From Eubacteriales bacterium (GTDB lineage Bacteria > Bacillota > Clostridia > Oscillospirales > UBA644), in assembly GCA_045603745.1 (NCBI GenBank), contig JAZUMQ010000037.1, positions 66,224 to 130,223 on the forward strand: DNA of 64,000 nucleotides, given 5' to 3'. Position numbers and translations under genes: made by a program. Positions within the stretch are counted from its first letter, which is position 1. Each line of letters starts with the position of its first letter. The notes beneath the pieces are model-generated. The model searched no databases. It saw only the letters and a list, made by a program, of their open reading frames with translations, and was not told where the DNA came from. Shown here in pieces: positions 2,483-60,000 of the stretch.

Positions 2483-3223
2483 CTACGACACAAAAGAAGC
2501 ATCCTCCATGGCAAAACACTCAATCTGAAATTCATCATACACATTTTGCATTGATATTTCCGTTTGAGTCAACAAACTGTCGATTGAAGCATAAACATCT
2601 TTCACTTCTAAATTAGTCATAAGATTTTGGAAATCAAATAAATCTAATTGCCCCCCTCGAACGGAGCTTTCAAAGCTTGCAGGATCCTCATTGTACCAAT
2701 CAATAATAATCGGTTCTGCGGGATTTTGAACCCCAATCTGAACACATTCTCCTAAATAAGACCTCTCCGTCAATCCGGCATATTGTAATTCCAAGTGACA
2801 AGCAACCTTACAAACAAGAATATCCCCTATTGCTTTCCAATCTAAAACCGTATATGACCCGTCTATATACTCTTCAAGCAACCCTGATGCACGATTATAT
2901 GAAGTATCATAAATAAGCTTACTTTTCAAATATCCTTTTAAGGTAGTAGACAACGGCAAATTTTCTATTTCAGAATTCACATATTTAAAGGGTGTTGAAT
3001 CTGTTTGTAAAGATTTTTTGTCATTGCCGATAACGATAGTTGAACTTCGTTCTAAGCGATTGTATAATTCTATAGTATCCGTTATTAAATTAAAATACGG
3101 AATCAATTGTTCCTCCGTTAAATCATCAAAAGAATCCGGAACTATAACATAATTCTCTGCAACGATCGGAACCGATTGCATAAGCACAACAATCGCAAAT
3201 AGCACTACTAAAACTTTTTTCAT
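2483..3223 (-). CDS. secreted protein of unknown function (likely the N-terminal part of the Amidase_6 protein)
   Basis: 246 aa. Signal peptide MKKVLVVLFAIVVLMQSVPIVA. GGGAGG SD 7 nt upstream of the ATG. Ends at TAG 2483-2485, in frame with the downstream amidase ORF. Confidence 0.65.
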   Translation of the reverse strand: MKKVLVVLFAIVVLMQSVPIVAENYVIVPDSFDDLTEEQLIPYFNLITDTIELYNRLERSSTIVIGNDKKSLQTDSTPFKYVNSEIENLPLSTTLKGYLKSKLIYDTSYNRASGLLEEYIDGSYTVLDWKAIGDILVCKVACHLELQYAGLTERSYLGECVQIGVQNPAEPIIIDWYNEDPASFESSVRGGQLDLFDFQNLMTNLEVKDVYASIDSLLTQTEISMQNVYDEFQIECFAMEDASFVS

Positions 3224-3304
3224 AATAAACCTCCCAAAAAAGAATTGAACTCACTTTAAAGCAATCATTATAAAAATCGAAAGCTCTCACACTCTCAATT
3301 TCTA

Positions 3305-3342
3305 ATAAAAAAGCACGTAAGCCAACCTCTCGACTCACGTGC
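3305..3342 (-). terminator. intrinsic terminator of the 29-codon gene
   Basis: Minus strand reads GCACGTGAG-12 nt loop-CTTACGTGC (9 bp, one G-U), followed by TTTTTTATT. The hairpin begins 3 nt after the TAG stop. Confidence 0.55.
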
Positions 3343-3344
3343 AA

Positions 3345-3434
3345 CTATTTGCTTGCTTCAACACAATCCTTCCAAAGGGAAAATTTCAAAAAAGCAATTT
3401 GCAACGAGCCGGCTATATTTAAAACGGACTTCAT
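3345..3434 (-). CDS. unannotated 29-aa amphipathic peptide MKSVLNIAGSLQIAFLKFSLWKDCVEASK
   Basis: Below the ORF-track size cutoff. ATG 3432-3434, AAAGGAG SD 8 nt upstream, its own promoter (3461-3490) and a terminator (3305-3342) directly after the stop. Hand-translated. Confidence 0.45.
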   Translation of the reverse strand: MKSVLNIAGSLQIAFLKFSLWKDCVEASK

Positions 3435-3460
3435 ACAAAACACTCCTTTTTCCTGATTCT

Positions 3461-3490
3461 ATTATATCATATTTTGCAACACAAAATCAA
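3461..3490 (-). promoter_or_regulatory. sigmaA-type promoter of the 29-codon gene
   Basis: Minus strand: TTGATT (3485-3490), 18-nt spacer, TGaTATAAT (-10 at 3461-3466). Confidence 0.45.
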
Positions 3491-3602
3491 TATGGCACAA
3501 TATACAAAATATTAAAAAAAACATGTGCAGTCTGCCTAAAACAAAATTGTTGCAAAAATAAAGATATCAGAATTTTCATCGCTAATCTACTTGAATTTTC
3601 GC

Positions 3603-3645
3603 AAAAACCACCCGAAAAAGAATTTCTTTTTCGGGTGGTTTTTTA
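3603..3645. terminator. bidirectional intrinsic terminator ending the eight-gene ABC operon
   Basis: Perfect 14-bp stem ACCACCCGAAAAAG / CTTTTTCGGGTGGT (3607-3639), flanked by an A-run and a T-run. Lies 6 nt downstream of the stop at 3651. Confidence 0.85.
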
Positions 3646-3650
3646 TCCGA

Positions 3651-4664
3651 TCATTCGACTAGACCGGAGCGTTCAATACTCTGAATGAAGTACCGTTGGG
3701 CGAAGAGGAAGACGATCAACAAAGGTAGGATAATCAAAAGACAAGCCGTATCGTTAATCGCCATCGCCTGAGCTTCGTCTTTAATGGAAGAAGCAACGTT
3801 GGCTGCCTTATTGGCAAGGATCTCCAACTTAGGCAACAGCATGCTGTTGTAGGTGGTATCGGTCCACTGCCAAGTAAAGGCGAACAGGAAGACGGTGATC
3901 ATCATGTTTGCCGCGTTGGGAAGCATGATGGAGAAGAAGGTCCGGAAGAATCCCGCACCGTCGATGTAGGCAGAATTTTCCAATTCCTTGGGAAGACCCC
4001 GGAAGAACTGACGCATCAAATAAATGTAAAGCCCGTTCTTCAGACCCAACCCCACTGCCGACAAAATGACCAAAGGCCAGTAGGTATTGATCAAACTTAC
4101 GTCCGTTCCGAGGAAATGAGAGAAGCGAACGAACAAGGGCAACTGAATGGTCTGGGCGGGGATCATCAAGGTCAACAGAACCATAACGAACAGAAGGTCT
4201 CTGCCCTTAAACTTAAACCGGGCAAAACCGTAACCCACAACGCTTGCAACAAACAACTGGAAGACGGCAACGATCAGAGAGAGCAACGCCGTATTCATGA
4301 AAGAAGTCCAGTAGTTCATATTGAGCATAGCACGTTCGATGAAGTAGGTAGAACCCTGACGGGGAATGTACATAACCGTGTTATCCACGATGTCCTCGGT
4401 GCTAGAGAAAGCAACGACAAACTTGACGAGGAAGGGATACAGGATCATATAGGCAATACCGACAATGATGATAAAGCGGAGAATGATCCAAACCAGTTTT
4501 CCCAATCCGTTCAGATTCAGGTTGCGGCGTTTCCAAGTTTCCCAGTCCACCTTTTCCTTCTGAACTTTATTACCGGAGCGCATTTCGGCAAGAAAGGATT
4601 TCTTACCGCCGGAGGGGAACAATTTTTCTTTGATTTCAAGAATGAATTCTTTGATCTTATCCAT
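3651..4664 (-). CDS. CUT1-type carbohydrate ABC transporter permease (MalG/LacG-like), pair 2
   Basis: 337 aa. Multi-TM with EAA loop ELENSAYIDGAGFFRTFFSIMLP. GGAGGG SD. About 55-aa basic N-terminal extension. Confidence 0.85.
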   Translation of the reverse strand: MDKIKEFILEIKEKLFPSGGKKSFLAEMRSGNKVQKEKVDWETWKRRNLNLNGLGKLVWIILRFIIIVGIAYMILYPFLVKFVVAFSSTEDIVDNTVMYIPRQGSTYFIERAMLNMNYWTSFMNTALLSLIVAVFQLFVASVVGYGFARFKFKGRDLLFVMVLLTLMIPAQTIQLPLFVRFSHFLGTDVSLINTYWPLVILSAVGLGLKNGLYIYLMRQFFRGLPKELENSAYIDGAGFFRTFFSIMLPNAANMMITVFLFAFTWQWTDTTYNSMLLPKLEILANKAANVASSIKDEAQAMAINDTACLLIILPLLIVFLFAQRYFIQSIERSGLVE

Positions 4665-4677
4665 ATCGTTCCCTCCT

Positions 4678-5634
4678 TTAATCCTGATAGACGATCAACT
4701 TATTGACCAACAAATAGACAACGCCCACAAATAGCAAAAGCAAGACCGTATACATCCAAGAAAATGCAGATGCTACAGAATAAGTAGAAACGTTTTCATA
4801 ATATTTGGCAATGAAGGAGATGGTACTATTGTCCATACTGGTAAACAGATCGATAACGGTGTAGAGCAGGTTTACCAAAATCAAGGGAGAGATCATGGGG
4901 AAGGAAATCTTCCAGAACACTTCCCAGCCGGTAGCACCTTCCACCTTTGCGGCTTCGTACATATTGATAGAAATCGACTGCAAGCCGGAGAGGAAGATCA
5001 ACATCTGAACACCGGAAGAGGTAATTACGGAATAAAGTCCGCCGATGGCACCGGAAACGATGGTTGCAAGACTGGAATTCCCCAGCGCGGAAAGAACCAT
5101 TGCTTCGATCTCCATAGTATTAAACCCGGCGACCCCGGCACCGACGTCCAACTTTTCCCCTTGCTGATATTGGTCTTGCAAACTGGAAAGGTTATCGAAA
5201 TAGGTGACGATACCGGTAGAAAGAACCACGGGGATAAAGAAGATAACACGGGCGACGGATCTGCCTCGGAAATTCTGATTCAGGATATTTGCCATAAAGA
5301 ACGCAAAAATCAAGATAATGAAAATCTGAGGCAACAATGCAATGGTAGAGGAATACACAGTTTTGAGGAAATCGGATTCCACAAAGAGTGCATCGTGGTA
5401 ATTTTGCCAACCAACATAGACGTTTTTCTCACCGTATCGGCCGGCGTTTTCGGAAAAGGAATACTGAATGGACTGCACCAGAGAGGGAATGTAAATAAGA
5501 GCCAAACCGAGAATGACCGGAGAGACAAAAATATAGCCGAACAGACTCTTTTTACGTTCCAAAGAAAGCCGAGGCTTTTTGAGAGGCTTCTTTGCAGGCG
5601 CAGATACTTTTACTTCTGCAATTTTTTCAGCCAT
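4678..5634 (-). CDS. CUT1-type sugar ABC transporter permease (MalF/LacF-like), pair 2
   Basis: The track starts at TTG 5640. I prefer ATG 5632-5634, which has GGAGGG 6 nt upstream. EAA loop MYEAAKVEGATGWEVFWKISFP. Confidence 0.85.
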   Translation of the reverse strand: MAEKIAEVKVSAPAKKPLKKPRLSLERKKSLFGYIFVSPVILGLALIYIPSLVQSIQYSFSENAGRYGEKNVYVGWQNYHDALFVESDFLKTVYSSTIALLPQIFIILIFAFFMANILNQNFRGRSVARVIFFIPVVLSTGIVTYFDNLSSLQDQYQQGEKLDVGAGVAGFNTMEIEAMVLSALGNSSLATIVSGAIGGLYSVITSSGVQMLIFLSGLQSISINMYEAAKVEGATGWEVFWKISFPMISPLILVNLLYTVIDLFTSMDNSTISFIAKYYENVSTYSVASAFSWMYTVLLLLFVGVVYLLVNKLIVYQD

Positions 5635-5636
5635 TT

Positions 5637-8600
5637 TCAACCCTCCTGTGTCGCGTCATTCACATCATCTGTTACCGGAGGTACGGGGGTGGGTTTCTCC
5701 TGGTAAGCAGTTCCTGTGATGGCTTTTTCGTATTCGTTCATGGTGAGAACCAAGTAAGATTTTGCTTTGATCACGGTGCGATCGTTCAATTCCACGTCAT
5801 TGGAATTGTAGTTTACAAGAACGACCTTCTTGCCGCCGTACACGGTAGCAAATACACCGTCGCAAGCAACCCGCTTCAACGCAGGTTCGTAGGTGGGCAA
5901 AGTTCCGGGTTCCGCACCTTCGGGAACGGGGATTTCCGTCCAACCGATCAGTCCTTCGTGATCCAACGCATAGAAGGCGTCGACCGTCATGTGATCGGTA
6001 ATGGATTCATTCACAACGTCATTCAGAACCTTTGCAGCCTCTTTGTAAATTTCCACCGCCCGATCAAAGGTCGAGGTATAATTCAAAGAGAAGTAATTGT
6101 AGAATTCCGTGTAGTCGAAGACCGAATCTTCGGCACCCATCCAGCGGAAGGTGAAAGCAGAACCGGTTTCCAGAGCCAACAGAAGGGCGGTTTCGTAGTC
6201 GCCGGTCTGATTGAGGGGTTCCAGAGAATAGTTCACGTAACCGTGAAGCATGATCTGAGTAAAGGGAATGCCGGAAGATTCCGTCATATATTCCGAAGAA
6301 CCGGTAGACAGGCCGAAAATGTGGGAAGCAAACTTCCAGGTATAGAAGTTACCGGTAGAAACCGCAATGTCATACCCATCAAAAGCTTGCAGAACCTTCA
6401 CGTGGTCCTTTTCTGCCCAAGCCCGAGAAACACCTTCGTTGGTCTTATAGTTGGAGTGAAGTTCTTTCCCCAAATTGCCCAATGCGATGTTTTTATTATC
6501 TCCAAGGACTTTTTCAAAGGAAGCTTTATAGGTTTCAGCCATTTCCGCAGAGACTTTGGAAGAAACCAAAATCTTTTCGGTCAAATCATTACGAAGCGAA
6601 CCGGTGGCATTCATTCGATCCACAATGGTAGCAGTGGAACGGTTCATACGCCGGGCGGCGTCTTGAGATTTACTGAATCCGTTTCCGGTAGAAGTCACGT
6701 GGAGGAACTCAACGGAGGGGAAGAATCCCATACCGTTATCGTTGCAGAACTGAACCAAAGAGGTCAATTCCCCTTTCGTTCCCATACAATCGAGCAGTTC
6801 CAGATCTTTGGCAATCACGTTGTTTTCTCCGCCGTTTGCCCAATAGGTATAGCGGGCAACCACGTTGCTGATGCCGGACTCTTTCAGTTTGGTCAGGATT
6901 TCAAGGGATTGTTTGTAAGTGGTCAAAGGCGTTTTCGTCTTAACGGGAACGCCGACGACCGTTTCGTTCATATCCACACAACCAATCAGATCCACAAAGA
7001 AGGGCAACTCGGTTTCCTCAAGTTTTTCTTTGGGGAAAAGATCTTTGGAGATGAAGTAATTTCTCAGATAGGCGGCGTATTCAGGATAGGTCATTCCGCC
7101 TTCGGTAAACAAATATTGAATCCGATACACACCGGTAACGGCGTCTTTGGAAAGCAACAATCCGGAACCGGACTGAGAGCTTCCGGTACCGACAGCGGCC
7201 AAGGAAGTGGAATAGGTGCGGTAATCCCGTTCCGAATAAACCACTTCGTAGTTAATGGAAGAAACCGGGTACGCATTCCCCTGGATAGGACGAGCGACAA
7301 CACTCGCCTGTCCCGCTCCCTCTTCCATGATGGCAATGATACCGCCTCCATTGTATCGGGTGGCGTCCGTAGAAAATTCTCCACGATCGAAAACCAGATA
7401 CGGTGCAAGAATTTGTTCGGAATAATCGGTATCGTATTTCTTATCAAAGGAACCGTCGTTTCCGTAGACTCTCCCTTTGAACACGTCCGTCTTCAAATTC
7501 CCTTTCACGGGAATCACAGCACCGGAACCGTCGGGAACGATCATATAACCGTTGGGATAGGTAGCTTTCGTCGCCCCAAGACCGCGGTACAGGTTAACGG
7601 TATACAACCGCTGTTTGGTGGGGCCCAAGATCAAGGAAGAATCCATGTTGACGGAAAGCCCGTTTTCATTCAGCACGAGATCCACGGGGATCGTGTAAAG
7701 AACGGAACGTTCCGGTCCTTGATAGTCTGCTTTTTCCATTTCCCGCTTAACGTCTTGTGCCGTAAACCCGATGGTTTCCATCAGCGTCTTGACACGACCT
7801 TTTTGCTTGGTCGAGACTTTATCGTAGGAAATGTACATACTCATAACGTCAATGTGGGGGAAGGTTTCAGCGAAACGTTCCTTATCTTCCGCACTGAGCG
7901 CCTGGCTTTTATCTTCTGGGTTGGGAGTAATGTAGCGGTAACAATCGTCAAGAACGTCAAGATATTTCAGATAATCTTTTTCACTGATGACACCGTCTAA
8001 ATACTTATCTTCCAATCCCTTCAAAATGGTATTGTCATAAGTATCTTTCGTAATGACCGGGGGGAACAATTCCTTATCCGGGTCATTCCCGATGGTATAA
8101 ATCAAGCGAAGAGATTGGTCGCCGGTTTTCAACACGTAGAACGAACCGTCCTGAAGACAATTGTCGTAGAAGTTGAAGCTATACCGCTTTCCGGAGGAAT
8201 CGTACGCCTCGACCGACAAAGGAGAAGCAATGGTAGCTTGTTGGCTTGCAGTGAGGGTGGTGTCGGGGTCACGGTCCGGGTTGGAGTGATAGGTAAACCC
8301 GGTCTTTAAATCGACGACAGCAATATCGGTGGTTTCAAAATCAATGTACAGTTCATAACCCTTATTTTTCAAAACCAAGTACATATTGGTCAAACCGGTA
8401 GTACCGCCCTTACTTTTGTTGACTTTACTGTAACCGGCAGGGGCTTTGCCGTAAAGTTGTTCGCCTTCTTCGTCAACAATCAGGGGAGCGTAGAGAATCT
8501 CCACTCCCTCTTCGTTCAAAAGGCCGTTGATAAATTCCTGACGTGCAGCATCGGAAACCTCGTTGGATTCCATAGAATTCAAACCGCAGGCAGAAAGTGC

Positions 8601-8660
8601 CAAAGCCACGAGAAGAAGACTTGTAATTAAGAGGATTAGTTTTTTCGTCATAAATTTCAT
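5637..8660 (-). CDS. ~1007-aa lipoprotein, DUF5696-like, function unknown
   Basis: The track starts at 8681. ATG 8658-8660 has AAGGAGGA 8 nt upstream. Lipoprotein signal MKFMTKKLILLITSLLLVALALSAC. No further TM. The GYMIVPDGSGA motif and a barrel-like central region resemble the family I recall as DUF5696 (needs an HMM check). Confidence 0.6.
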   Translation of the reverse strand: MKFMTKKLILLITSLLLVALALSACGLNSMESNEVSDAARQEFINGLLNEEGVEILYAPLIVDEEGEQLYGKAPAGYSKVNKSKGGTTGLTNMYLVLKNKGYELYIDFETTDIAVVDLKTGFTYHSNPDRDPDTTLTASQQATIASPLSVEAYDSSGKRYSFNFYDNCLQDGSFYVLKTGDQSLRLIYTIGNDPDKELFPPVITKDTYDNTILKGLEDKYLDGVISEKDYLKYLDVLDDCYRYITPNPEDKSQALSAEDKERFAETFPHIDVMSMYISYDKVSTKQKGRVKTLMETIGFTAQDVKREMEKADYQGPERSVLYTIPVDLVLNENGLSVNMDSSLILGPTKQRLYTVNLYRGLGATKATYPNGYMIVPDGSGAVIPVKGNLKTDVFKGRVYGNDGSFDKKYDTDYSEQILAPYLVFDRGEFSTDATRYNGGGIIAIMEEGAGQASVVARPIQGNAYPVSSINYEVVYSERDYRTYSTSLAAVGTGSSQSGSGLLLSKDAVTGVYRIQYLFTEGGMTYPEYAAYLRNYFISKDLFPKEKLEETELPFFVDLIGCVDMNETVVGVPVKTKTPLTTYKQSLEILTKLKESGISNVVARYTYWANGGENNVIAKDLELLDCMGTKGELTSLVQFCNDNGMGFFPSVEFLHVTSTGNGFSKSQDAARRMNRSTATIVDRMNATGSLRNDLTEKILVSSKVSAEMAETYKASFEKVLGDNKNIALGNLGKELHSNYKTNEGVSRAWAEKDHVKVLQAFDGYDIAVSTGNFYTWKFASHIFGLSTGSSEYMTESSGIPFTQIMLHGYVNYSLEPLNQTGDYETALLLALETGSAFTFRWMGAEDSVFDYTEFYNYFSLNYTSTFDRAVEIYKEAAKVLNDVVNESITDHMTVDAFYALDHEGLIGWTEIPVPEGAEPGTLPTYEPALKRVACDGVFATVYGGKKVVLVNYNSNDVELNDRTVIKAKSYLVLTMNEYEKAITGTAYQEKPTPVPPVTDDVNDATQEG

Positions 8661-8673
8661 ATCCTTATCCTCC

Positions 8674-9408
8674 TTACTCATTCAAGCGGAAGATAACTTC
8701 CGTTCCGATTTCAATAAAGAAGCTGGAAAGCTGTTGGAGCAGGAAGAAGATCAGAATGGCAACGAATGCAATGACCGCCATGCCAATGATGGTCAAAACT
8801 GTCGTTCCGACGCCCTTTGCAACAGAATATTGATGCACAATGATCATTGCAAGAAAGACGTACAAATATCCCCAAATCATTCCCAAGCTTCCGATGAAAT
8901 TGAAAATACTGGCTTCCGAGCTGGCAAGGAAGTGACTGAGAGGAATTTGGATCAGATTGCAAATGGTAATGGGAAGGATCGCATAAGTCGTTACCATAAA
9001 CACGTCAGACAACTTTCCGTCCCCGTCCATCAAAGACGAGAAACACCAGTTGGAGACCGCCCACAGAATAAAAGGAAGAATCGCAGTTATTAAGCGGATC
9101 GGGATATTCAATGCCAACTGAGATGCCCGATCGGCAAAAAGGTAACCAAGGGTCTGAAAGCGAACCAAATCGACAACGGCGTAGATAATAAGCCACACCA
9201 CACCACCGGCAACAGAACGGCGCTTCGGATCGTTTTTCAGATCGAAGAATCCGTCAAAGGGATGGAAGAGAATGTAGAAGGCATAACCCATGCGCTTAAT
9301 CGTGGTCTTGGTTCCCTGCCACAATTTTGGCAAGAATGCTTTTATGGCGGTCCAAAGATCTGCAAAAATCTTAGAAAAATTGATGGATCTCTTTGCAGCC
9401 TTTTCCAT
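8674..9408 (-). CDS. YIP1-family integral membrane protein
   Basis: 244 aa, about 5 TM. FHPFDGFFDLKNDPKRR and DGDGKLSDVFMVTTYAILP match the Yip1-domain pattern. The start overlaps the upstream stop (TAATG at 9406-9410). Confidence 0.7.
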   Translation of the reverse strand: MEKAAKRSINFSKIFADLWTAIKAFLPKLWQGTKTTIKRMGYAFYILFHPFDGFFDLKNDPKRRSVAGGVVWLIIYAVVDLVRFQTLGYLFADRASQLALNIPIRLITAILPFILWAVSNWCFSSLMDGDGKLSDVFMVTTYAILPITICNLIQIPLSHFLASSEASIFNFIGSLGMIWGYLYVFLAMIIVHQYSVAKGVGTTVLTIIGMAVIAFVAILIFFLLQQLSSFFIEIGTEVIFRLNE

Positions 9409-11123
9409 TAGTTCTCATCTCCTTTCGCCAGGTTGTATTTTTCGGCAGCAGCTTGTTGTCTTGCCAGAGCTATCGCCAATTCTTTTGCTTTTTGTCTTCT
9501 GCGTTTTTTCTGCTTACGGACAATGCTTAAAACAAAATATCCGACCACCAAAACGCCAATCGAACCGAAGATCAAACCGAAATATTGTTCCAATTCATGG
9601 GTACGCAAAGCGATATATGCAGTAGAATAATTTTCCTTTTCATTGGCGCGGTCATAATAGACCATTGCATTTTCGTAATGATCAAAAGAGGTCATTCCGG
9701 CAGCATCGACTTCATCGTCAATTAGCTTCAGTGCCAACTGCATTTCCGCGTTACCCAAATTGATATTGGCGATATACATATTAGAGTTATAACTCAGAAC
9801 GTCTTTCCAAAGAGGAATAGATTCTGCCCAATATCCGGCGGCAGTTGCCGCTGCGGCTTTGTTGATGGAAAGAACGTAGGGCGTAGCCTTGAATATGGTG
9901 ACGGTATTGCTCAGCGTATCCGCAATGTAGACGTAATCTCCGTTGATCTCCAACGCCGATGCCATCTGGAAGGTCCCCGCGGAAGTTCCGGCACCGCCAC
10001 AAATGTAGAGCAGATTTCCGTCCGTGTCGTAAGTAGAGAACCGTCCGGTCATCTGATCAAGAATGGTGTACCGTCCGCTTTCTTCATCTACGGCAATATC
10101 CACGATTTTGGGAGCATATCCTTTCATCATAGGCCAAGTCAGGTCGCCCATGGGAGAGGCAAGACCTTTGCGACGAAGCATATCCGTACCGTCCGCAGAC
10201 AGTTTGCGAACCGGTGCGTGAGAAGTTTCAATAGAATAACCGGAAAGCGCCTTCACAGAGGCTTCGTCCAATGCGGCAATGGTAGCATAAATAAATCCGC
10301 GTTCATCGATGGTCAAACTGCTGTATTCGGTGGGCGTATAGGTAACCATCTGTGCCAACTGTTCTTCGGTAGCAAAGTTACGCCAAATCCGTTCACCCAA
10401 ATTGACGATAACGTCGGGGGTTCCGAAGAAAGCGTTAAATTGTCCTTCGCTGGTAATCTGCACGATTCCGCGATTGATTCCGGAGCAAATGACCTGAACG
10501 TCACCGATATTATCCACAACTAACCGGGTGGGTTTGAAGAGATAATTATCGCCGAGAACGGAAATTTTAATTGCTTGCAAAACCTTCGAGACCTTACCGT
10601 TGATGTCACAAGCAAGAATGCGTTGGTTTTCCGTATCGGAGATGTAAATCGTTCCGTCTTCCGTAACGAAGATTCCCTGGGGAGCGTTCAACGAGTACTT
10701 GTTGGAAGAGATCACGACTTCCTGCTGTTCTCCGTCTTCCCCTTCTACCTTTTCCGCACTCAAGGCAAGTTCCGGAATATCGCCCGTCAAAGTACGGATC
10801 GTGGAAACCAGTTGATACTGTTCGTCCAAAATGTAAACGGAGTTTCCTTTGGAATCAAGAACATACAGAAGTCCGTTCTTGTAACAAATATCCGAAGGAA
10901 CAAAGGCAGTGGTAACCGTCGCGTTGGGGACAATATCCAAAACGGAGATCATCTTTTCTACGGTAAAGGAAAGCGGGGCTGCGGCATCTACACCGTCTAC
11001 ATTATAAAAATAAGAGTTGTTTACATTGTTAATGGGGAGAGCAGAAGCCGAAAGAACGGAGCAAAAGACCACTGCGAAGGTTAGTACCATAACAATGAGG
11101 CTTTTTATAAACTTTTGTTTCAT
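9408..11123 (-). CDS. NHL-repeat beta-propeller protein with C-terminal TM anchor and polybasic tail
   Basis: 571 aa. Signal peptide, then several NHL-like blades (e.g. PQGIFVTEDGTIYISDTENQRILACD, GDYVYIADTLSNTVTIF). A helical segment is followed by TM helix LIFGSIGVLVVGYFVLSIV, then RKQKKRRRQKAKE. Confidence 0.7.
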   Translation of the reverse strand: MKQKFIKSLIVMVLTFAVVFCSVLSASALPINNVNNSYFYNVDGVDAAAPLSFTVEKMISVLDIVPNATVTTAFVPSDICYKNGLLYVLDSKGNSVYILDEQYQLVSTIRTLTGDIPELALSAEKVEGEDGEQQEVVISSNKYSLNAPQGIFVTEDGTIYISDTENQRILACDINGKVSKVLQAIKISVLGDNYLFKPTRLVVDNIGDVQVICSGINRGIVQITSEGQFNAFFGTPDVIVNLGERIWRNFATEEQLAQMVTYTPTEYSSLTIDERGFIYATIAALDEASVKALSGYSIETSHAPVRKLSADGTDMLRRKGLASPMGDLTWPMMKGYAPKIVDIAVDEESGRYTILDQMTGRFSTYDTDGNLLYICGGAGTSAGTFQMASALEINGDYVYIADTLSNTVTIFKATPYVLSINKAAAATAAGYWAESIPLWKDVLSYNSNMYIANINLGNAEMQLALKLIDDEVDAAGMTSFDHYENAMVYYDRANEKENYSTAYIALRTHELEQYFGLIFGSIGVLVVGYFVLSIVRKQKKRRRQKAKELAIALARQQAAAEKYNLAKGDEN

Positions 11124-11142
11124 TGCAAATACTCTCCTTCCC

Positions 11143-12123
11143 TTAGTCTTTCATACCGGACGTAGCCATCGTCTCAATGATATTACTTTGAGTAATCAAG
11201 AACGTCAGAATCGGAACGATCATCATCAAAACGCTGGTGGCGGTAGCAACACCTGCACGAGCCATACCTTCCGAGTTGATCTGGCTCAAGGCGTAGTTCA
11301 GAGTCTTTAACTCTTCACGGTAAATGTAAATCGATGCACCCTGATTCCAATAATCCTTAACCGAAAAGACGATCAACGTCATCCAGGCGGGCTTCATGTT
11401 GGGCATCAAAATGCTCCAGAAGATCCGGAAGTCTCCGGCGCCGTCGATTCGAGCCGCTTCCAGAACCGAATCAGGGAACTGGTCAACGAATCCACGGATC
11501 AAATAAAGGGAGAACGACGATCCGAGCGCGGGAATAAAGTAAACAAGCCAAGTGTCAACGATTCCAAGAGCCGAGATGATCATATAGCTGGCATAACCCG
11601 CAGCAGGAGCAGAAATCATCAAGCTGATGGTAATCATTTTGTTGATCGCATGTTTCCCCTTAAACTTCCACTTAGAAAGAGGATACGCCGCCATAGAAGC
11701 CGAAACGATACGTAAAAACGTCGCCACGACAGTGATAAACAGCGTGTTGAACAAATACCGGGTAAAGGGGATCGTGGTATTGGACAAAATCGTGAACATA
11801 TCTCTGTAGTTCGTAAGCGTGGGATTTTTAACGATCAGATTCGGGGGGAATAACCACAGTTCGTGAAGGGGTTTAAACGAGTTGGAAATGGCATAGACCA
11901 TGGGGAACACCATGATCACGCCTACTGCAAGAAGGAACAAGATCATCGCAACGTCGCCGCCGGCGGACCGGTTTACGCGGGTTTTGATGAGTTTTCTCTT
12001 CTTATAATAAATAAGGTTGCCTTTTTCGTCGTATTTGGGACGTCTACGGAAGAGTTTGAAACCCTTTTTCGTATTGGCGTTGGGGAGATTTACAGTAGCT
12101 GTTTTTAATTTCATCTTCTTCAA
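11143..12123 (-). CDS. CUT1-type carbohydrate ABC transporter permease (MalG-like), pair 1
   Basis: 326 aa. EAA loop VLEAARIDGAGDFRIFWSILMP. About 55-aa Lys/Arg-rich N-terminal extension. Confidence 0.85.
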   Translation of the reverse strand: MKKMKLKTATVNLPNANTKKGFKLFRRRPKYDEKGNLIYYKKRKLIKTRVNRSAGGDVAMILFLLAVGVIMVFPMVYAISNSFKPLHELWLFPPNLIVKNPTLTNYRDMFTILSNTTIPFTRYLFNTLFITVVATFLRIVSASMAAYPLSKWKFKGKHAINKMITISLMISAPAAGYASYMIISALGIVDTWLVYFIPALGSSFSLYLIRGFVDQFPDSVLEAARIDGAGDFRIFWSILMPNMKPAWMTLIVFSVKDYWNQGASIYIYREELKTLNYALSQINSEGMARAGVATATSVLMMIVPILTFLITQSNIIETMATSGMKD

Positions 12124-12128
12124 CCTCC

Positions 12129-13034
12129 TTACTTACCGACTCTACCAATGATAAAGCGAATTGCCTGGTTTGCAACGTAGGTCATAACAAACATAACCAT
12201 AGCAATGGCGCAGGCATACCCCATCTCATAACGAGAGCCACCGAAGTCAGCCAAGTGAAGTGACAATGTGTACAACGTGTAGCCTTGGGTGGGGTTTCCG
12301 AAAATGGTGGATCCGACGCTAAAAGCACCGGTAATGGCGAGAACTGCACCGAAGAGCAGTTGTCCACGCATCTGAGGCAGAGTAATGAAGTACAATTCCT
12401 GCCAACGATTTTTGATCCCGTCCACCGCACCGGCTTCGTAAAGAGATTTATCGACCGTCTGAAGACCGGCGATAAAGGTCAAGAAAGAGGTACCGATGGA
12501 GGACCACAGAAGAATGATGATACAAACCGGCCACATGACATCGGTTTCAACCGTCCACAGGATCGGTTCATTAATCAATCCAAACTCCAGAAGCCAAGCG
12601 TTGATGTAACCGTACTTATCACTGGAGAACAAGAGAGCCCAAATAATATCCAAACCACCGGAAAGTGCGGGGGCGTAGAACAAAAGAGTCATGGCAGACC
12701 GGGGTTTGGGCGGAATTTCATTGACCAGCCATGCGAAAGCAAAGCATAGAATATATCCGCCGGGACCGGTAATCATGGCAAGAATCAACGTATTCTGAAC
12801 GGCTTTTGGGAACAACGTATCGTTCAGAAACAATCTTGCATAGTTGTCAAGACCGACAAAGTCAGGGAATTCCAACAGGTTGAAGTCGGTCAAGCTCATA
12901 ATAACGGAAACAGCGACAGGGAGAACGGTAAAAATGAAGAACGTGACAAGAAAGGGCCCAAGGAAAAAGGCCAGACTCAACCTGCGATTGCGATTGGCAT
13001 GTCTTAAAGTAGCAGATTTAACAGTTTTTTTCAT
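12129..13034 (-). CDS. CUT1-type sugar ABC transporter permease (MalF-like), pair 1
   Basis: 301 aa. EAA loop LYEAGAVDGIKNRWQELYFITLP. 6 TM. Confidence 0.85.
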   Translation of the reverse strand: MKKTVKSATLRHANRNRRLSLAFFLGPFLVTFFIFTVLPVAVSVIMSLTDFNLLEFPDFVGLDNYARLFLNDTLFPKAVQNTLILAMITGPGGYILCFAFAWLVNEIPPKPRSAMTLLFYAPALSGGLDIIWALLFSSDKYGYINAWLLEFGLINEPILWTVETDVMWPVCIIILLWSSIGTSFLTFIAGLQTVDKSLYEAGAVDGIKNRWQELYFITLPQMRGQLLFGAVLAITGAFSVGSTIFGNPTQGYTLYTLSLHLADFGGSRYEMGYACAIAMVMFVMTYVANQAIRFIIGRVGK

Positions 13035-13052
13035 GACTTTTCCTCCTCCCTA

Positions 13053-16000
13053 TCAATTTGTAGCTTCCGTTGACGAAGCTGCGTCGGAAGCGCTTTCATA
13101 AGGGAGATTCAATTGCTCTCTCTTATACTTGATTTCCTTGTTGATTTCCTGAATATACTTCAGAAGCGTAGCTCTGGCATCGGAGTATTCGTTGATAACC
13201 TCGTTATATGCAAAGCCGTAATAACGCGAGAAATAGTAACCGCCGACTTCTTCTTCATTTCCAACGGTATGATCCCATTGTTCCATAATCGCAGCCAATT
13301 CCTTCGTACTCCAAGGAATCCGTTGAGCAGCTGCAACGTTAGCGGTATTGTAACGAGCGGCAATTCCGAGGGTTGCTTCCAATTCAATACCGTATTGGTA
13401 CTGAGCATCTTCGCTGACCCACCATTGCATCCAAGCCCAGCAGGCGTTGGCATAATCTTCGCCCTGGCTAACGCCCCGGTTAAGCAATGCGATGGAAGAT
13501 ACGGTTGCAACGGTCTTACGGTTAAGAATGGGGTTTCCTTCTTCATCGGTGACCACGTTTCCGTTTTCATCGGTTACTTCCGTACCGGGAATGGTAGTAA
13601 AGGTCCAGGTTCCCTTGATTTCAGGAGCAGTGATGGCTAAGGTGCTGTAGAACGTTAAGGCCTGCATTCCGATGGGCATTTCACCGAAACGGAACCGGTT
13701 CTGGAAGTTATAAGACTTGGGGCAGTTGTAAGTAATAAAGTAGTCTGTTGCGGTAATAAAGGATTGAATGGCGATTTCGGAATCCAAATTGATCCGTTGT
13801 CCATCGTCCCGATAAAGGGTTCCGCCATTCTGATAAAGAATGGTTTGGAAATCCGGAGGAGCAAAGTCCATGTACCGCTTTTTCAAAACCGCGATCATGT
13901 CATAGACTTCCGTCCAAGTTTCCGGAACTTCCAATCCCAAATCTTTCAAAACGTCTTCGCGGTAGAAAAGAAGATCGAAAGTTTGCTTTTCGGGAAGTCC
14001 GTAAATATTGCTAACGATTCCCTGGCTGGGGTCGTCCGGATTCTTATAAACTTCCAACGTAATGGGAGAAAATGCGGAAGATTTAAACCAAGTTTTGACT
14101 TCCGAAAATCCGGGAACGTCCTGATAGCCTTCTTGGGCACCTTCCAGGGTAAAGCCATCGAAGTTATTCAATGCAACCAAGGCGTTACGAGAAGCATAGT
14201 TGATAATATCACCGGAGCCCAGACCCATAACGATGTCCGGACCTTTGCCGGCAAAAACAGAAGGCAACAGTGCGCCGCCGGGGACAAGAGCAATGTCAAT
14301 CCCGATCTGATACTGATTGATGAAAGAACGTTCGATCAATCGCTGTTTGATGTCTGCACGCTCTTTCCCGGTAGTAGCCCAGATAGAGATCGTGGTATCA
14401 AATTCCTGATCGGTAGTCGATCCGATGGCGTTGGAATCGGACGTAAAGGAAGCAGCAAACATCGAGATGTTATGCCAGATGTTTTCAAACACACCGGCAG
14501 AACCGGTGCCGGCGTCGTAAGAAGGTTCTGCAACCAAAATATAATCCAACTCCAGGGGTTGATTCCGCATGGTATTCAACCAAGATCCCAAATTTGTAAT
14601 CTGATTCTTAAAATTACTGAAATAGGAAGGTATATTGTCCGGCTCTTCCGCCATGTCGTACAAGACGTCAATGACGTTGTAAACGATGGCAGTTTGTTGA
14701 CCGTCGCCGCCCAAGATTTCGATGAGGTTATTGTAAACACTCGTCAAAATATCTCCTTGCGCTTTCAGGTCGGAAATTACGTCGGGAATGACTTCGTCCA
14801 ACTTATAATCCCGGAATTCGTCAGGAGATGCACCGGTAATCTGCATAATCTTGCGGTAACCGCTATTCAACTTGGAAATAACGGTATCCACCGCGTTGAT
14901 ATATTCACCCAATTCTCCGGTAGTCGCGGAAATACGAATGATATTTTCCCCTTCGTTGAACTTGAACAGCAATTCGTTGCCGTAATCGTCACCGGGGGTG
15001 ATCATCGCCCATTCGGTAGAATAGGGAAAACGAACCTGAGATGCTTCCAGTACGGGGGTTTCTCCGTTTACGGTGATCTGCCGGCTGGAGAAGGTCCCGG
15101 ACACGATATTCTGCCGTGCCCGAAGAACAATCTTATACAGACCTGCCTTAGGCACATTTACTTTATATTCCACCCATTGACCGGAGCCGTTCCAGTTTTC
15201 ACCGCCAATTACGTTATACTTCAGCAGTGTAGAAGACTGGGGCTGGGTTGCCGCAGACGAACGGTCATAACTGGAATAAACGGAGGTGGAGGATTTGTCA
15301 TAGGGATATTCTGCCTGAATCTTTGCGATCAGCCGATCTCCTTCGATCCGATAATCTCCGTTTTCCGCCAAAAATTCCGTATAAGAAACCGATTCCTTCA
15401 CACCGTACAAATACAGCTTGGAGAAGGCTGCAGGTTCTCTGGAAGAAGTCAAACGAATTACGTTGGTTCCCTTTTCCAGATAAAACTGCAATACACCGTC
15501 ATAGGCGCCGGTGGAATCTTTAAAGTAAGAATTCTCAATCCATCTCCGTTCTTCTTTGGAATTCAGGCGGATCTGATTTCCGTCCAGATCTTCCGGATAG
15601 TATCCGGAGAAAATTCCATCGGCATCGGGGCCGGTAACTTTATTCCAATCCACGTCGTCAACAAAGAGACGGTCCAAGGCTGCCGTCTTCGCTTCGGAAT
15701 ACGGACTTTCCCCATTGATCGTGATAGAACGTTCGATAGAGATTCCTCGCCCTTCCATAGGGAAATAATCACAACCAAGGCCGTACAACCCGGTAGAGGG
15801 AACTTCGATGGTAAATTCTACATATCCTCCTTCTTGAGTGACGAGAACATTGTCCTTTCCCTCGTAAGTTTTGACTTCGACGTTTTCCCCGGCAACATAC
15901 TTGGACACGTCAATGTTGATGACGTCATCCGAAGCCGTCGCGCGGGCGTAAGTCTGCAGATATTCACCATAAGACCCAGCCTTATAAACGGCGACGAAGG

Positions 16001-16109
16001 GGATGTTGGAATCCAACTCCGTCAACGTTTTTGCAGAAGAGGTCAAAGCAAACATCTGGACCGCCATCACAGCAATCAAGACTACTGCGATAACTCTGTT
16101 TTTGCGCAC
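13053..16109 (-). CDS. giant (1018-aa) extracellular solute-binding protein with two N-terminal CBM-like beta-sandwich modules
   Basis: GTG start 16107-16109 with GGAAGG SD. Signal/anchor MRKNRVIAVVLIAVMAVQMFALTSSA. Two paralogous modules (residues ~62-236 and ~262-398), a helical linker, then a family-1 SBP-like C-terminal half (TTISIWATTG ... GKGPDIVMG). Confidence 0.7.
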   Translation of the reverse strand: MRKNRVIAVVLIAVMAVQMFALTSSAKTLTELDSNIPFVAVYKAGSYGEYLQTYARATASDDVINIDVSKYVAGENVEVKTYEGKDNVLVTQEGGYVEFTIEVPSTGLYGLGCDYFPMEGRGISIERSITINGESPYSEAKTAALDRLFVDDVDWNKVTGPDADGIFSGYYPEDLDGNQIRLNSKEERRWIENSYFKDSTGAYDGVLQFYLEKGTNVIRLTSSREPAAFSKLYLYGVKESVSYTEFLAENGDYRIEGDRLIAKIQAEYPYDKSSTSVYSSYDRSSAATQPQSSTLLKYNVIGGENWNGSGQWVEYKVNVPKAGLYKIVLRARQNIVSGTFSSRQITVNGETPVLEASQVRFPYSTEWAMITPGDDYGNELLFKFNEGENIIRISATTGELGEYINAVDTVISKLNSGYRKIMQITGASPDEFRDYKLDEVIPDVISDLKAQGDILTSVYNNLIEILGGDGQQTAIVYNVIDVLYDMAEEPDNIPSYFSNFKNQITNLGSWLNTMRNQPLELDYILVAEPSYDAGTGSAGVFENIWHNISMFAASFTSDSNAIGSTTDQEFDTTISIWATTGKERADIKQRLIERSFINQYQIGIDIALVPGGALLPSVFAGKGPDIVMGLGSGDIINYASRNALVALNNFDGFTLEGAQEGYQDVPGFSEVKTWFKSSAFSPITLEVYKNPDDPSQGIVSNIYGLPEKQTFDLLFYREDVLKDLGLEVPETWTEVYDMIAVLKKRYMDFAPPDFQTILYQNGGTLYRDDGQRINLDSEIAIQSFITATDYFITYNCPKSYNFQNRFRFGEMPIGMQALTFYSTLAITAPEIKGTWTFTTIPGTEVTDENGNVVTDEEGNPILNRKTVATVSSIALLNRGVSQGEDYANACWAWMQWWVSEDAQYQYGIELEATLGIAARYNTANVAAAQRIPWSTKELAAIMEQWDHTVGNEEEVGGYYFSRYYGFAYNEVINEYSDARATLLKYIQEINKEIKYKREQLNLPYESASDAASSTEATN

Positions 16110-16231
16110 TGCAAAACACCTTCCTTTTGGTTCAAATATTGCCTCAGAGATGAAAAAACACCGGCGGGGGTCAGCCGCTAGCGTCCTGTCATATCCGTTG
16201 TTGCGAAAAAGATTTTCTTTTTCACGTAAAT

Positions 16232-16260
16232 ATTATAATATATTTAACGCAAAATGTCAA
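16232..16260 (-). promoter_or_regulatory. consensus sigmaA promoter of the eight-gene operon
   Basis: Minus strand: TTGACA (16255-16260), 17-nt spacer, TATAAT (16232-16237). Leaves a leader of about 115 nt to the GTG at 16109. Confidence 0.7.
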
Positions 16261-16654
16261 GTAAAATTCTTCCGTATTCGAGCATTATTTCCTCTCGGTT
16301 TATATACTTTTTACCATAAATCTCTTCCCAATGGGAAAGTTTTTATTGATTTTTCAAGCCATTTTGAGGCAATTGTTATGCAAGCATAACACCAACAACA
16401 CAATATATAGTAAATTCAATTCTTTCAAAATTTAAATTTGTCAACATATTGCGTTTCCCAAATATTTAAAAAAATGGCAAATGTGCAATTTGCACAAATT
16501 TTTCCCTCAAAAAATAGATTCAAAAAAACGATACAAAGGTTTCAAATTTAGTTAACAATCTACTTATTTCTTGAATTTTTCCCGAACTTTTAAAGTACAA
16601 AAAAAACACACAAAACAATTCCCTAAACCCCGCCTGCTTCAAATTGGAATCCCT

Positions 16655-16704
16655 CAAAAAAACAACGCATAAAAACGTTTTGATGTACGTCTTTGTGCGT
16701 TGTT
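16655..16704 (-). terminator. intrinsic terminator downstream of srtB
   Basis: Minus strand: AACAACGCA ... TGCGTTGTT (9-bp stem, large loop containing AAAACGTTTT), followed by TTTTTTTGAGGG. Confidence 0.5.
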
Positions 16705-16772
16705 CGATTAGATTCTGTCAGGTTATTTCGGCCACTGTTTCACACGTTCCACAATGAGATCGACAGTCTCTT

Positions 16773-17828
16773 TTAAGAATTGGAGACCGAACCGTTTCCG
16801 TCGGTAGTTTCCGCACCGGAATCGTCGGAAGAAGTTCCATTGGAAGCTTGAATCCCGGGGAGCGTGGAATCCGTATCCGAGACCGAAGGTACTTTATTGG
16901 CGGGACCGGGACCGAGGACGTATTCGTGCTTCACCAAAACGGCGTGCATAGCGATACGCACGTCGCTGTTACTTCCCTTACAGGTAGACAAAGTCAAAAT
17001 GCGATCATTGGGAGTAAACTGAAAGGATTCAAAGGCAGAAATGGTATTCTTGGACTGAAGGGTATTCAAAAACGTCACGTAATCCGCATCATTGGAAAAA
17101 TACGTACTGATATAATTGAACGCCGTAGTGGTTTCATACCAAGCAAATACCTGCCACACGGTACGCTCCGTGGGGGTGTTGATATAAATGAAGTGGTTGT
17201 TTCCGTCCTGTTGCCATTTGGTTTTGGAATTCAGATACCGCAATCCACCGAACATCAGATAACTGCGGGCGTGACCGTAGATGATCACGTTTCTATTGGA
17301 AAGAATATTGTTCATATTGCAACGATAATCTACATAGATCCAACCGTTACTGTTGTTGCTCTTATCAAAAGATCGGGAGAGATAGAACTCGTTGTTCGTA
17401 CTCTGCACCACCGCCCGATTAAAGGGCAATCCCTTTACGTCGGTGGTGGTAGGCCAATACAACCACGCTACAGTATCTTCGTTTTGCTCTTTCAGAGAAT
17501 CAAACCCAACGGTCTGCAAAAAGGGAAGGGTTTCGGGGTCAATATTTTCAGGCGCAATCTGTTGCCATGACGCAACCGGCGTATTTGGAGAAATCACCGT
17601 TCCGTCATCGTCTTCGTCGGAGGGTTCAAAAACGTCTCCCCCCATATGCTCTACCTCCGATTGCCCGGCAAGATCCAACAAGGATTGCTCGAACACGCCG
17701 AGAAGGCTGAAAGAAAAGACGAAAGCACAGACGGCAAGAAGCACCAAAGACAAGGGAGAATATTTAACATACCCCTTGTTCTTCGGCTTTTGCATTTCTT
17801 CTATTTCAGGTTGTTTTTTTTGCGTCAT
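16773..17828 (-). CDS. srtB: class B sortase (unusually long, 351 aa)
   Basis: N-terminal TM. DTVAWLYWP ... AVVQSTNNEFYLSRSFD, NVIIYGH, catalytic TLSTC, and an Arg near RIAMH. Extra acidic N-terminal linker and a Ser/Asp/Gly-rich C-terminal tail. Confidence 0.8.
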   Translation of the reverse strand: MTQKKQPEIEEMQKPKNKGYVKYSPLSLVLLAVCAFVFSFSLLGVFEQSLLDLAGQSEVEHMGGDVFEPSDEDDDGTVISPNTPVASWQQIAPENIDPETLPFLQTVGFDSLKEQNEDTVAWLYWPTTTDVKGLPFNRAVVQSTNNEFYLSRSFDKSNNSNGWIYVDYRCNMNNILSNRNVIIYGHARSYLMFGGLRYLNSKTKWQQDGNNHFIYINTPTERTVWQVFAWYETTTAFNYISTYFSNDADYVTFLNTLQSKNTISAFESFQFTPNDRILTLSTCKGSNSDVRIAMHAVLVKHEYVLGPGPANKVPSVSDTDSTLPGIQASNGTSSDDSGAETTDGNGSVSNS

Positions 17829-17864
17829 GAACTCCCTCCTTCGGGATTGGAGAACGGCTAAAAA

Positions 17865-56850: not shown

Positions 56851-60000
<3,150 letters not shown>

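Follow-up and report, generated by a model that had tools for sequence, protein, structure and literature searches.

What does an operon build when it encodes two pairs of permeases of the carbohydrate-uptake kind and three proteins of non-transporter families, and has no ATPase to drive them? The question is raised by a 64,000-nt window (the whole stretch of DNA that was analysed) from contig JAZUMQ010000037.1 of a Eubacteriales bacterium, in which eight open reading frames (ORFs), called and translated on the minus strand, fill positions 3651-16109. In their order of transcription they encode a giant solute-binding protein (SBP; g1, or S below), the permeases F1 and G1 (g2, g3), an NHL beta-propeller protein (g4, N), a Yip1-family membrane protein (g5, Y), a DUF5696 lipoprotein (g6, D) and the permeases F2 and G2 (g7, g8). 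According to our analysis, and with a probability that we put at roughly 0.6, these genes form one operon for a conserved two-module carbohydrate import apparatus of the ABC (ATP-binding cassette) type with an obligatory accessory set. In module A (g1-g3) the giant SBP, which is not a lipoprotein, would capture a surface glycan and pass an oligosaccharide inward to F1/G1. Module B (g4-g8) would be a second importer built on the second, anciently diverged pair F2/G2, which has a small SBP of its own in many relatives and is always accompanied by a membrane-anchored NHL propeller (with TPR repeats in some relatives) joined to Yip1 and by the DUF5696 lipoprotein.

The argument starts from conservation. 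We scanned one genome per GTDB species with a DUF5696 motif, which gave at least 599 matches, 543 of them confirmed; the best 80 loci were kept and the eight window proteins searched against all of their ORFs, so that our loci are the top-scoring part of a larger family (5,518 clusters at 50% identity for DUF5696, E <= 1e-3). Wherever the contig is long enough, the order S-F1-G1-N-(Y)-D-F2-G2 is found on one strand, with a sole exception (L046), a block permutation where module B precedes module A. Metagenome and isolate loci to which other proteins led us keep the same order down to about 23-27% DUF5696 identity, and over roughly 90 loci in total it persists across several phyla at identities as low as 21%. 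The neighbourhood check which the earlier note on this DNA had proposed is therefore strongly passed, and the genes behave as one co-conserved unit. Its hosts are Clostridia (Oscillospiraceae, Lachnospiraceae, Ruminococcus, Herbinix, Mahella), Halanaerobiales, Treponema and Haloplasma (L064, L082), among them rumen and gut Clostridia, Butyrivibrio and termite-gut Treponema, with Aristaeella hokkaidonensis (CP068393.1) and Butyrivibrio sp. AC2005 as cultured carriers. Two loci (L025, L054), surrounded by ricin-lectin genes and genes of the glycoside hydrolase (GH) families GH2 and GH130, carry N(Y)-D-F2-G2 with a conventional SBP-like gene and no module A within 5-7 kb. Because module B stands alone in these two loci and is permuted in L046, the invariant core is NHL/Yip1-DUF5696-F2-G2.

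The layout in the window (Table 1) is that of a single transcription unit, bracketed, as had been read before, by one consensus promoter and one strong terminator. The promoter, TTGACA-17-TATAAT at 16260-16232, is the sole perfect sigma-70 consensus within positions 2500-18000. The terminator folds at -28.4 kcal/mol (z = -7.0; none of 200 shuffles folded equally well), and promoter-like and terminator-like matches inside the operon show no excess over shuffled expectation. From g1 to g8 the intergenic distances are 18, 5, 19, -1, 13, 2 and 13 nt, which agrees with the claim that the genes overlap or are at most 19 nt apart; the overlap of g4 and g5 is the TAATG at 9410-9406, and between the stop of g6 and the ATG of g7 we measured 2 nt in place of the 3 nt given earlier. 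The operon promoter is conserved in three related loci (L007, L008, L001), and perfect 12/12 promoters, there with an additional TG extension, precede the cassette also in distantly related hosts (L005:786-814, L073:284-312), a recurrence in the sequences that suggests strong, possibly constitutive transcription. The leader folds at -37.3 kcal/mol (z = -2.8), and both of its hairpins are kept in the same three related loci despite differing sequences; with a U-run after it, the second hairpin looks like an attenuator, as far as can be predicted. A scan of positions 3000-17000, leader included, gave no Rfam match. The mirrored gene order that had been described did not hold up and was rejected in favour of a tandem one, with the receptor-F-G series repeated around NHL/Yip1.

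Table 1. Coordinates of the eight genes and of the signals that bracket them, with the evidence for each.
Feature	Position	Strand	Evidence
g1, giant extracytoplasmic SBP, 1018 aa	13053-16109	-	AlphaFold2, Foldseek, homologue annotation
g2, MalF/UgpA-like permease F1	12129-13034	-	BPD_transp_1 1.5e-7; UgpA/PotB-like
g3, MalG/UgpE-like permease G1	11143-12123	-	BPD_transp_1 5.6e-9; UgpE 1.6e-21
g4, NHL beta-propeller protein	9408-11123	-	Pfam NHL 7e-10
g5, Yip1-family polytopic membrane protein	8674-9408	-	Pfam Yip1 8.9e-14
g6, DUF5696 lipoprotein, 1007 aa, lipobox LSAC	5637-8660	-	Pfam DUF5696 1.3e-118
g7, MalF-like permease F2	4678-5634	-	BPD_transp_1 1.8e-7
g8, MalG/UgpE-like permease G2	3651-4664	-	BPD_transp_1 2.4e-17; UgpE 8.7e-21; MalG 1.3e-18
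Sigma-70-type promoter, TTGACA-17-TATAAT	16232-16260	-	12/12 consensus match
5' leader, ~120 nt, two hairpins, the second followed by a U-run	16110-16231	-	fold energy
Bidirectional intrinsic terminator	3603-3645	both	perfect 18-bp stem, A-run and U-run flanks

These data bear directly on the simplest alternative, namely that two ordinary importers of the CUT1 (carbohydrate uptake transporter 1) family came to lie by chance beside unrelated NHL, Yip1 and DUF5696 genes. Each permease pair, taken alone, does have the standard CUT1 look, and an absent ATPase gene is, as an established matter, common in Firmicute CUT1 loci. The strict order over about 90 loci at such low DUF5696 identities, the overlapping or tightly spaced genes, the fusion of NHL to Yip1 in many loci and the movement of module B as a block when it is apart from module A all go the other way; the alternative is contradicted by the neighbourhood analysis, and we regard it as scarcely credible.

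Pfam scans of all eight proteins, made as the earlier note had proposed, identified four BPD_transp_1 permeases, the NHL, Yip1 and DUF5696 proteins, and nothing in g1. The two subunits with an EAA loop that are typical of a CUT1 importer are present twice over, the four BPD_transp_1 matches ranging from 1.5e-7 to 2.4e-17. As claimed, canonical EAA loops can be read in all four translations, for example LYEAGAVDG...ITLP in F1, LEAARIDGAGDFRIFWSILMP in G1 and MYEAAKVEGATGWEVFWKISFP in F2; G1 has in addition a family-specific NRSxGGD motif and the C-terminal QSNIIETMATSGMKD, G2 has a conserved C-terminal IERSG tail, and the ATG of g7 at 5634 is preceded by an AGGAGGG ribosome-binding site (RBS). 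In NCBIfam the permeases are closest to UgpA, UgpE and MalG, with scores far under the equivalog cut-offs. G1 and G2 share 28% identity, and F1 and F2 can be aligned solely around the EAA loop, from which it follows that the pairs are ancient paralogues and not the outcome of a recent duplication. The basic N-terminal extensions of about 55 residues which had been pointed out in both MalG-like subunits hold in part: in G2 some 30 residues are kept at >=70% column occupancy in most orthologues, with weak sequence conservation, and in G1 the extension is clade-specific.

The AlphaFold2 model of g1 (predicted local distance difference test, pLDDT, 86; predicted TM-score, pTM, 0.82) consists of an N-terminal signal/transmembrane (TM) helix, two beta-sandwiches (residues 60-235 and 260-396), a stalk of four long helices (398-515) and an SBP fold (519-1000). 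The SBP part matches oligosaccharide-binding proteins (Foldseek E ~1e-17; TM-score normalised to the target 0.69-0.79), including the cycloisomaltooligosaccharide and sophorooligosaccharide SBPs, GacH, MalE and CbpB; its C-terminal half also finds Lin1841 among PDB sequences (phmmer, 2e-8), with weak CBM35 matches, and its homologues are annotated as SBP_bac_1/8 plus CBM_35 or CBM_6. It follows that g1 is a MalE-like sugar-binding protein of cluster B, the kind that CUT1 systems use, and the earlier description of a giant SBP with two modules resembling carbohydrate-binding modules (CBMs) is upheld by model, Foldseek and homologue annotation; judging from fold and sequence, the two sandwiches are CBM6/35-like. 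In contrast to g6, g1 has no lipobox.

The first two genes of module B appear to specify one membrane protein. The g4 product has a signal peptide, an NHL propeller (supported by Pfam and by phmmer matches to the PknD-derived six-bladed propellers in the PDB, 5e-16), a helical region, a single C-terminal TM helix and a basic cytoplasmic tail; in its orthologues TPR repeats are called between propeller and TM helix. In about 40% of loci NHL and Yip1 are one fused protein. Lengths of NHL proteins split accordingly into 480-635 aa, with a separate Yip1 gene, and 656-809 aa, without one, and Yip1 is the C-terminal domain of the long ORFs in four cases checked with Pfam and, by precomputed Pfam annotation, in L092. 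From this split and from the Yip1 domains of the long ORFs we infer that NHL and Yip1 act as one membrane protein. Separate or fused, Yip1 is encoded with the transporter in every locus, as it is in YknWXYZ-type systems, where YknW of the Yip1 family modulates assembly of the YknXYZ ABC complex (PMC4887032). By analogy with YknW, it would be logical to suggest that NHL-Yip1 serves as a subunit for assembly or scaffolding, one that organises or stabilises the import complex.

What may energise the permeases is a separate matter. No ABC ATPase and no regulator are found in or adjoining the operon, as had been noted; in the whole 64-kb window a single ATPase was found, part of an NMT1/Ssu-type ABC system (53.7-56.1 kb), and an ATPase of the MalK/MsmK/UgpC type (~370 aa, with a C-terminal regulatory domain) is absent from operon and window alike. 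Firmicute CUT1 loci commonly lack an ATPase gene and depend on a shared MsmK or MsmX. A shared MsmK, suggested before as the answer, remains one option, but not the sole one, as seven relatives encode a LolD/MacB-type pair; an MsmK-type gene adjoins the cassette in none of about 90 related loci. In eight loci of a Ruminococcus-like clade (L005/L006, L069, L070, L073, L076, L086, L091; two are near-identical, which leaves seven distinct relatives) two short ABC ATPase genes (1055-1732 and 1779-2675 in L005) stand directly before the SBP gene. Both L005 and L073 have a 12/12 promoter ahead of the first of these genes and no terminator between it and the SBP gene. In NCBIfam the ATPases match LolD, MacB, DevA and FtsE best. 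In two of the loci examined the second ATPase (L005:1779-2675, L091:803-1762) carries a C-terminal SpoVT/AbrB (MazE-like) domain, which is unusual on the nucleotide-binding subunit of an ABC transporter and may be regulatory. In the source genome ATP hydrolysis would be provided in trans, either by a shared MsmK-type ATPase or by a LolD-type pair orthologous to this one. L038, L077 and L041 also have ABC ATPase genes downstream of the cassette; these are DrrA/ABC-2 or ECF-like, and we took them for unrelated neighbours. Nor did we count as partners the fused ABC_membrane-type exporters upstream or downstream of it in L014, L024, L027, L033, L035 and L039, some of which lie on the opposite strand.

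The most unexpected component is the lipoprotein. Translated from its true start, the ATG at 8660 that a TAAGGAGGA RBS precedes, it has 1007 residues and is identical to database protein P0001; its lipobox differs by one residue from the family consensus LSSC. The match to Pfam DUF5696 (PF18952) scores 397.6 bits against a gathering cut-off of 25.6. The AlphaFold2 model (pLDDT 79, pTM 0.77) has an N-terminal beta-sandwich, a (beta/alpha)8 barrel and a C-terminal beta-sandwich, an architecture of the GH129/GH101/GH31 type, and Foldseek ranks ZgGH129 (8rzk/5opq, E = 2e-24) before NagBb of GH129 (5wzq, E = 4.5e-18), GH101 (E ~1e-13) and GH31 (E ~1e-8). Searched as a plain sequence against the PDB, g6 gave no match, and a profile search of PDB sequences matched GH129 alone, weakly; close relatives of a NagBb fragment carry precomputed Pfam matches to DUF5696 as well as GH101. 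A local hidden Markov model search aligned the barrel edges only and missed the catalytic strands, for which reason we used global hhalign: the 81 cassette DUF5696 sequences align with GH129 at a probability of 98.2% (E = 2e-13, 340 columns), where GH129 is represented by two sequences stitched by hand from frameshifted contigs (L089, L090) that may contain small errors. The lipoprotein has, in other words, both a fold of the GH129/GH101 clan and detectable homology to it. The modelling that had been proposed for lipoprotein and SBP did yield folds for both, and the statement that the unit holds no recognisable CAZyme does not stand, since Foldseek and hhalign identify DUF5696 as a GH129/GH101-fold protein. 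Many members of the family are longer (1300-2500 aa; P0235, P0288, P0296, P0300, P0336), with an N-terminal DUF5696 and long C-terminal extras; the one such long form that we checked, P0067 (1313 aa), sits in the cassette, as does P0074 (1079 aa, with a FIVAR domain).

Does this fold still carry the chemistry of its relatives? Counted from the PDB profile alignment, the residues to compare in NagBb are D435 in AYLDVF and E478 in SSSEEVSDW, which we take to be the nucleophile and the acid/base, respectively; Sato and colleagues reportedly assigned the acid/base to E478 in 2017. A review confirms NagBb as an enzyme and the fold relation and does not list its catalytic residues (PMC8106489). E478 pairs with G770 of the window protein, the alignment being anchored by W775 and S779-I781-F782 (W...S.IF), and its column in the 81 cassette sequences reads G46, A21, P5, V4, S2, T2 (46 Gly, 21 Ala and so on), never acidic: neither g6 nor any other of these 81 proteins has the GH129 acid/base glutamate. 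D435 falls on E733 by hhalign, in a column that is 32% acidic and is gapped in the local alignment, or on N737 by a manual alternative, in a column (D41, N27, S7 of 81) that is 54% acidic, so the nucleophile position lacks conservation under either alignment. No column of the 81 sequences is D/E in >=80% between residues 402 and 821, a span that takes in the first three-quarters of the barrel and with them strands beta4-beta6, on which GH129 carries its catalytic residues. E831 was considered as a catalytic residue and set aside; in the model this residue ends helix alpha7, N-terminal to strand beta8 and away from the usual active-site face. With its catalytic Glu missing, DUF5696 is a candidate pseudo-enzyme or new catalytic variant; on alignment and model it is a GH129 homologue unable to use the GH129 acid/base, either a pseudo-enzyme that binds or a non-canonical catalyst. 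We propose that it binds, or in a non-canonical way processes, the captured glycan beside F2/G2.

Several observations weigh against the two-module importer as we describe it. First, D377 in PDGSG(A) is invariant and the Asp of YGxD402 is kept in 79 of 81 sequences, both in the N-domain; the invariance of PDGSGA among the 81 holds by construction, being the scan pattern, but is found as well in an independent set of 20 sequences. R533, R746, N771, Y773, H806 and N817 are each kept in >=90% of the DUF5696 set, at D821 98% of the sequences have D or N, and at H890 90% have His and the others another aromatic. From these sequences D377 and D402 could, together with R746, N771, Y773, H806, N817 and D821, make a non-canonical active site. 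Second, LolD/MacB-type ATPases normally serve FtsX-type and not CUT1 permeases. Third, the flanking glycoside hydrolases vary by locus, which means that no consistent substrate emerges. Fourth, many loci lie amid housekeeping genes, here transketolase, sortase and SMC/FtsY, elsewhere Mur ligase, purine genes, ribosomal proteins and PheRS. Finally, a perfect promoter without an adjacent regulator is unusual for a substrate-induced sugar operon, and the clade-conserved structured leader likewise speaks against a simple inducible one.

The first of these points supports another view of the lipoprotein, as a working extracellular glycosidase or other glycan-cleaving enzyme with catalytic residues unlike those of GH129 (the invariant D377, the near-invariant D402 of an N-domain loop, or D821), which would trim the glycan captured by the SBP so that the two permease pairs import two products. 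Such an enzyme would fit the fold and profile homology to GH129, GH101 and GH31, the fact that the Pfam DUF5696 model also matches true NagBb-like GH129 fragments, the resemblance of PDGSG, YGxD and the polar barrel residues to a functional pocket, and the position of a surface lipoprotein adjoining transporters and variable glycoside hydrolases. It has to contend with an E478 column that is non-acidic throughout, a nucleophile column of low acidity in which the window protein itself has Glu or, by the alternative, Asn, and the lack of any strongly acidic column over most of the barrel. On balance we hold an active enzyme of this sort to be somewhat unlikely, though a tentative candidate.

The later points concern the substrate and where it comes from. 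The link to carbohydrates that had been drawn is borne out by the MalE-like SBP with its CBM6/35-like modules, by the UgpAE/MalG-like permeases and by flanks which, variable as they are (GH95, GH38, GH10, GH3, GH26, GH36, GH2, GH130, GH43, BNR, AraC, LacI/GntR), hold glycoside hydrolases and AraC/LacI regulators; in Butyrivibrio sp. AC2005 the cassette lies inside a GH10/GH43/AraC locus of xylan type. One may ask whether the carbohydrate is the cell's own, the cassette being a constitutive envelope or surface-glycan system for turnover, recycling or sensing of the cell's glycoconjugates, with the NHL protein as a sensor akin to the PknD ectodomain. Perfect consensus promoters with no regulator in most loci, the frequent housekeeping neighbours, a sortase-like gene upstream in this clade and an NHL domain closest to PknD-type sensor propellers would all suit such a system. 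We consider it improbable, given the xylan-type Butyrivibrio locus and the GH38, GH95, GH130 and GH2 neighbours elsewhere, a MalE-like SBP with CBMs, type-I importer permeases with EAA loops, and the presence of the cassette in Haloplasma. Haloplasma has no cell wall, and its cassettes make a cell-wall role in particular unlikely.

With two-module import as our preferred reading, we can look at what the lipoprotein may do within module B. The earlier note had argued that the second pair has no conventional SBP and that the lipoprotein may therefore be its partner. This is weakened by a conventional SBP gene of about 470-500 aa directly after G2, often followed by GH38, in 19 of 68 informative loci (28%), all with DUF5696 retained, and by the loci with module B only; given the loss of the GH129 acid/base, DUF5696 may have a non-catalytic binding role. 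A more daring version would take module B as an ABC-importer supercomplex of a kind not recognised before, in which F2/G2, in permanent association with a Yip1-NHL/TPR scaffold and an inactive GH129-derived lipoprotein that serves as receptor or feeder of glycan chains alongside or instead of a classical SBP, is driven by a dedicated LolD-type heterodimer of nucleotide-binding domains (NBDs) and not by MsmK. Taken jointly these propositions are unlikely to hold; if true, this would be the first importer known with an enzyme-derived receptor and a Yip1 subunit.

Some further observations concern the surroundings of the operon. Just downstream of its terminator a small separate unit occupies 3313-3490 on the minus strand, with an extended -10 promoter (3490-3461, TTGATT-18-TGnTATAAT), an AAGGAG RBS, a 29-codon ORF (3434-3345, MKSVLNIAGSLQIAFLKFSLWKDCVEASK) and a terminator with a 13-bp stem (3342-3313); it could be a small protein or a small RNA. 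Long stop-free ORFs run antisense to g6 (5592-8000, +, 802 aa) and to g1 (13764-16181, +, 805 aa), and both most likely reflect no more than the codon composition of the sense strand. The sortase-domain protein directly upstream (16773-17828, -, 351 aa) has a counterpart in L001 (281-1900, 539 aa) and is a trait of the clade, found in 4 of 67 upstream neighbours. The window also holds a GH2 beta-galactosidase (1032 aa, 56902-60000, +) and, at 60232-63747 (-), an ORF of 1171 aa with zero Pfam matches.

How does the cassette compare with known systems? With CUT1 importers (MalEFGK2, UgpBAEC, MsmEFG with a shared MsmK) it has in common heterodimeric BPD_transp_1 pairs with EAA loops, a MalE-like cluster-B SBP and, as often in Firmicutes, a locus without an ATPase gene. 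It differs from them in locking two anciently diverged permease pairs into one operon, in an SBP of about 1000 aa that adds a helical stalk and two CBM-like modules and has no lipobox, in three obligatory non-ABC partners and, where ATPases are linked, in two short LolD/MacB-type NBDs in place of the MalK/MsmK type. With GH129 (NagBb, an alpha-N-acetylgalactosaminidase, and ZgGH129, a 3,6-anhydro-D-galactosidase) and GH101, DUF5696 shares the three-domain architecture. Apart from the catalytic positions already discussed, it has no conserved counterpart of the stacking Trp398 of NagBb (in an alignment of low confidence there), and it is a surface lipoprotein tied to ABC permeases and not a free enzyme.

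The YknWXYZ system of Bacillus (Yip1 protein YknW, membrane-fusion protein YknX, MacB-type YknYZ) resembles the cassette in encoding a Yip1 protein with an ABC transporter and, for one cassette subclade, in linked LolD/MacB-type ATPases like YknY. An FtsX/MacB-type permease and an HlyD-type membrane-fusion protein are absent from the eight proteins by Pfam and from our family tallies of flanking genes. In contrast to YknWXYZ the cassette has permeases which are type-I importer subunits and an extracellular NHL/TPR propeller to which its Yip1 is coupled or fused; its context is carbohydrate uptake instead of peptide-toxin efflux. Polysaccharide utilisation loci of Gram-positive bacteria also place importer genes beside glycoside hydrolases and AraC/LacI regulators, as some of our loci do (Butyrivibrio sp. 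AC2005); unlike such utilisation loci, the cassette keeps an invariant eight-gene core without a canonical hydrolase, with flanking CAZymes and regulators that are variable or absent. The literature that we searched for DUF5696/PF18952, for the cassette and for combinations of Yip1, NHL and ABC contained nothing relevant, and in it the statement that the three non-ABC parts have no assigned role holds.

We see the cassette, then, as a kind of ABC sugar importer whose conserved accessory set is new. It is widespread, a DUF5696 relative being present in at least 543 species-level genomes, yet absent from the papers searched. DUF5696, a large domain of unknown function, is now tied to the GH129/GH101 lineage; the fusion of NHL to Yip1 suggests that bacterial Yip1 proteins may serve ABC transport in a second way; and LolD-type ATPases may drive permeases of the CUT1 type, which would be an unusual pairing. 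Should the uptake of large glycans from plants or hosts depend on the accessories, the cassette would be a Gram-positive counterpart, in its logic, of the surface capture-and-import systems of Bacteroidota.

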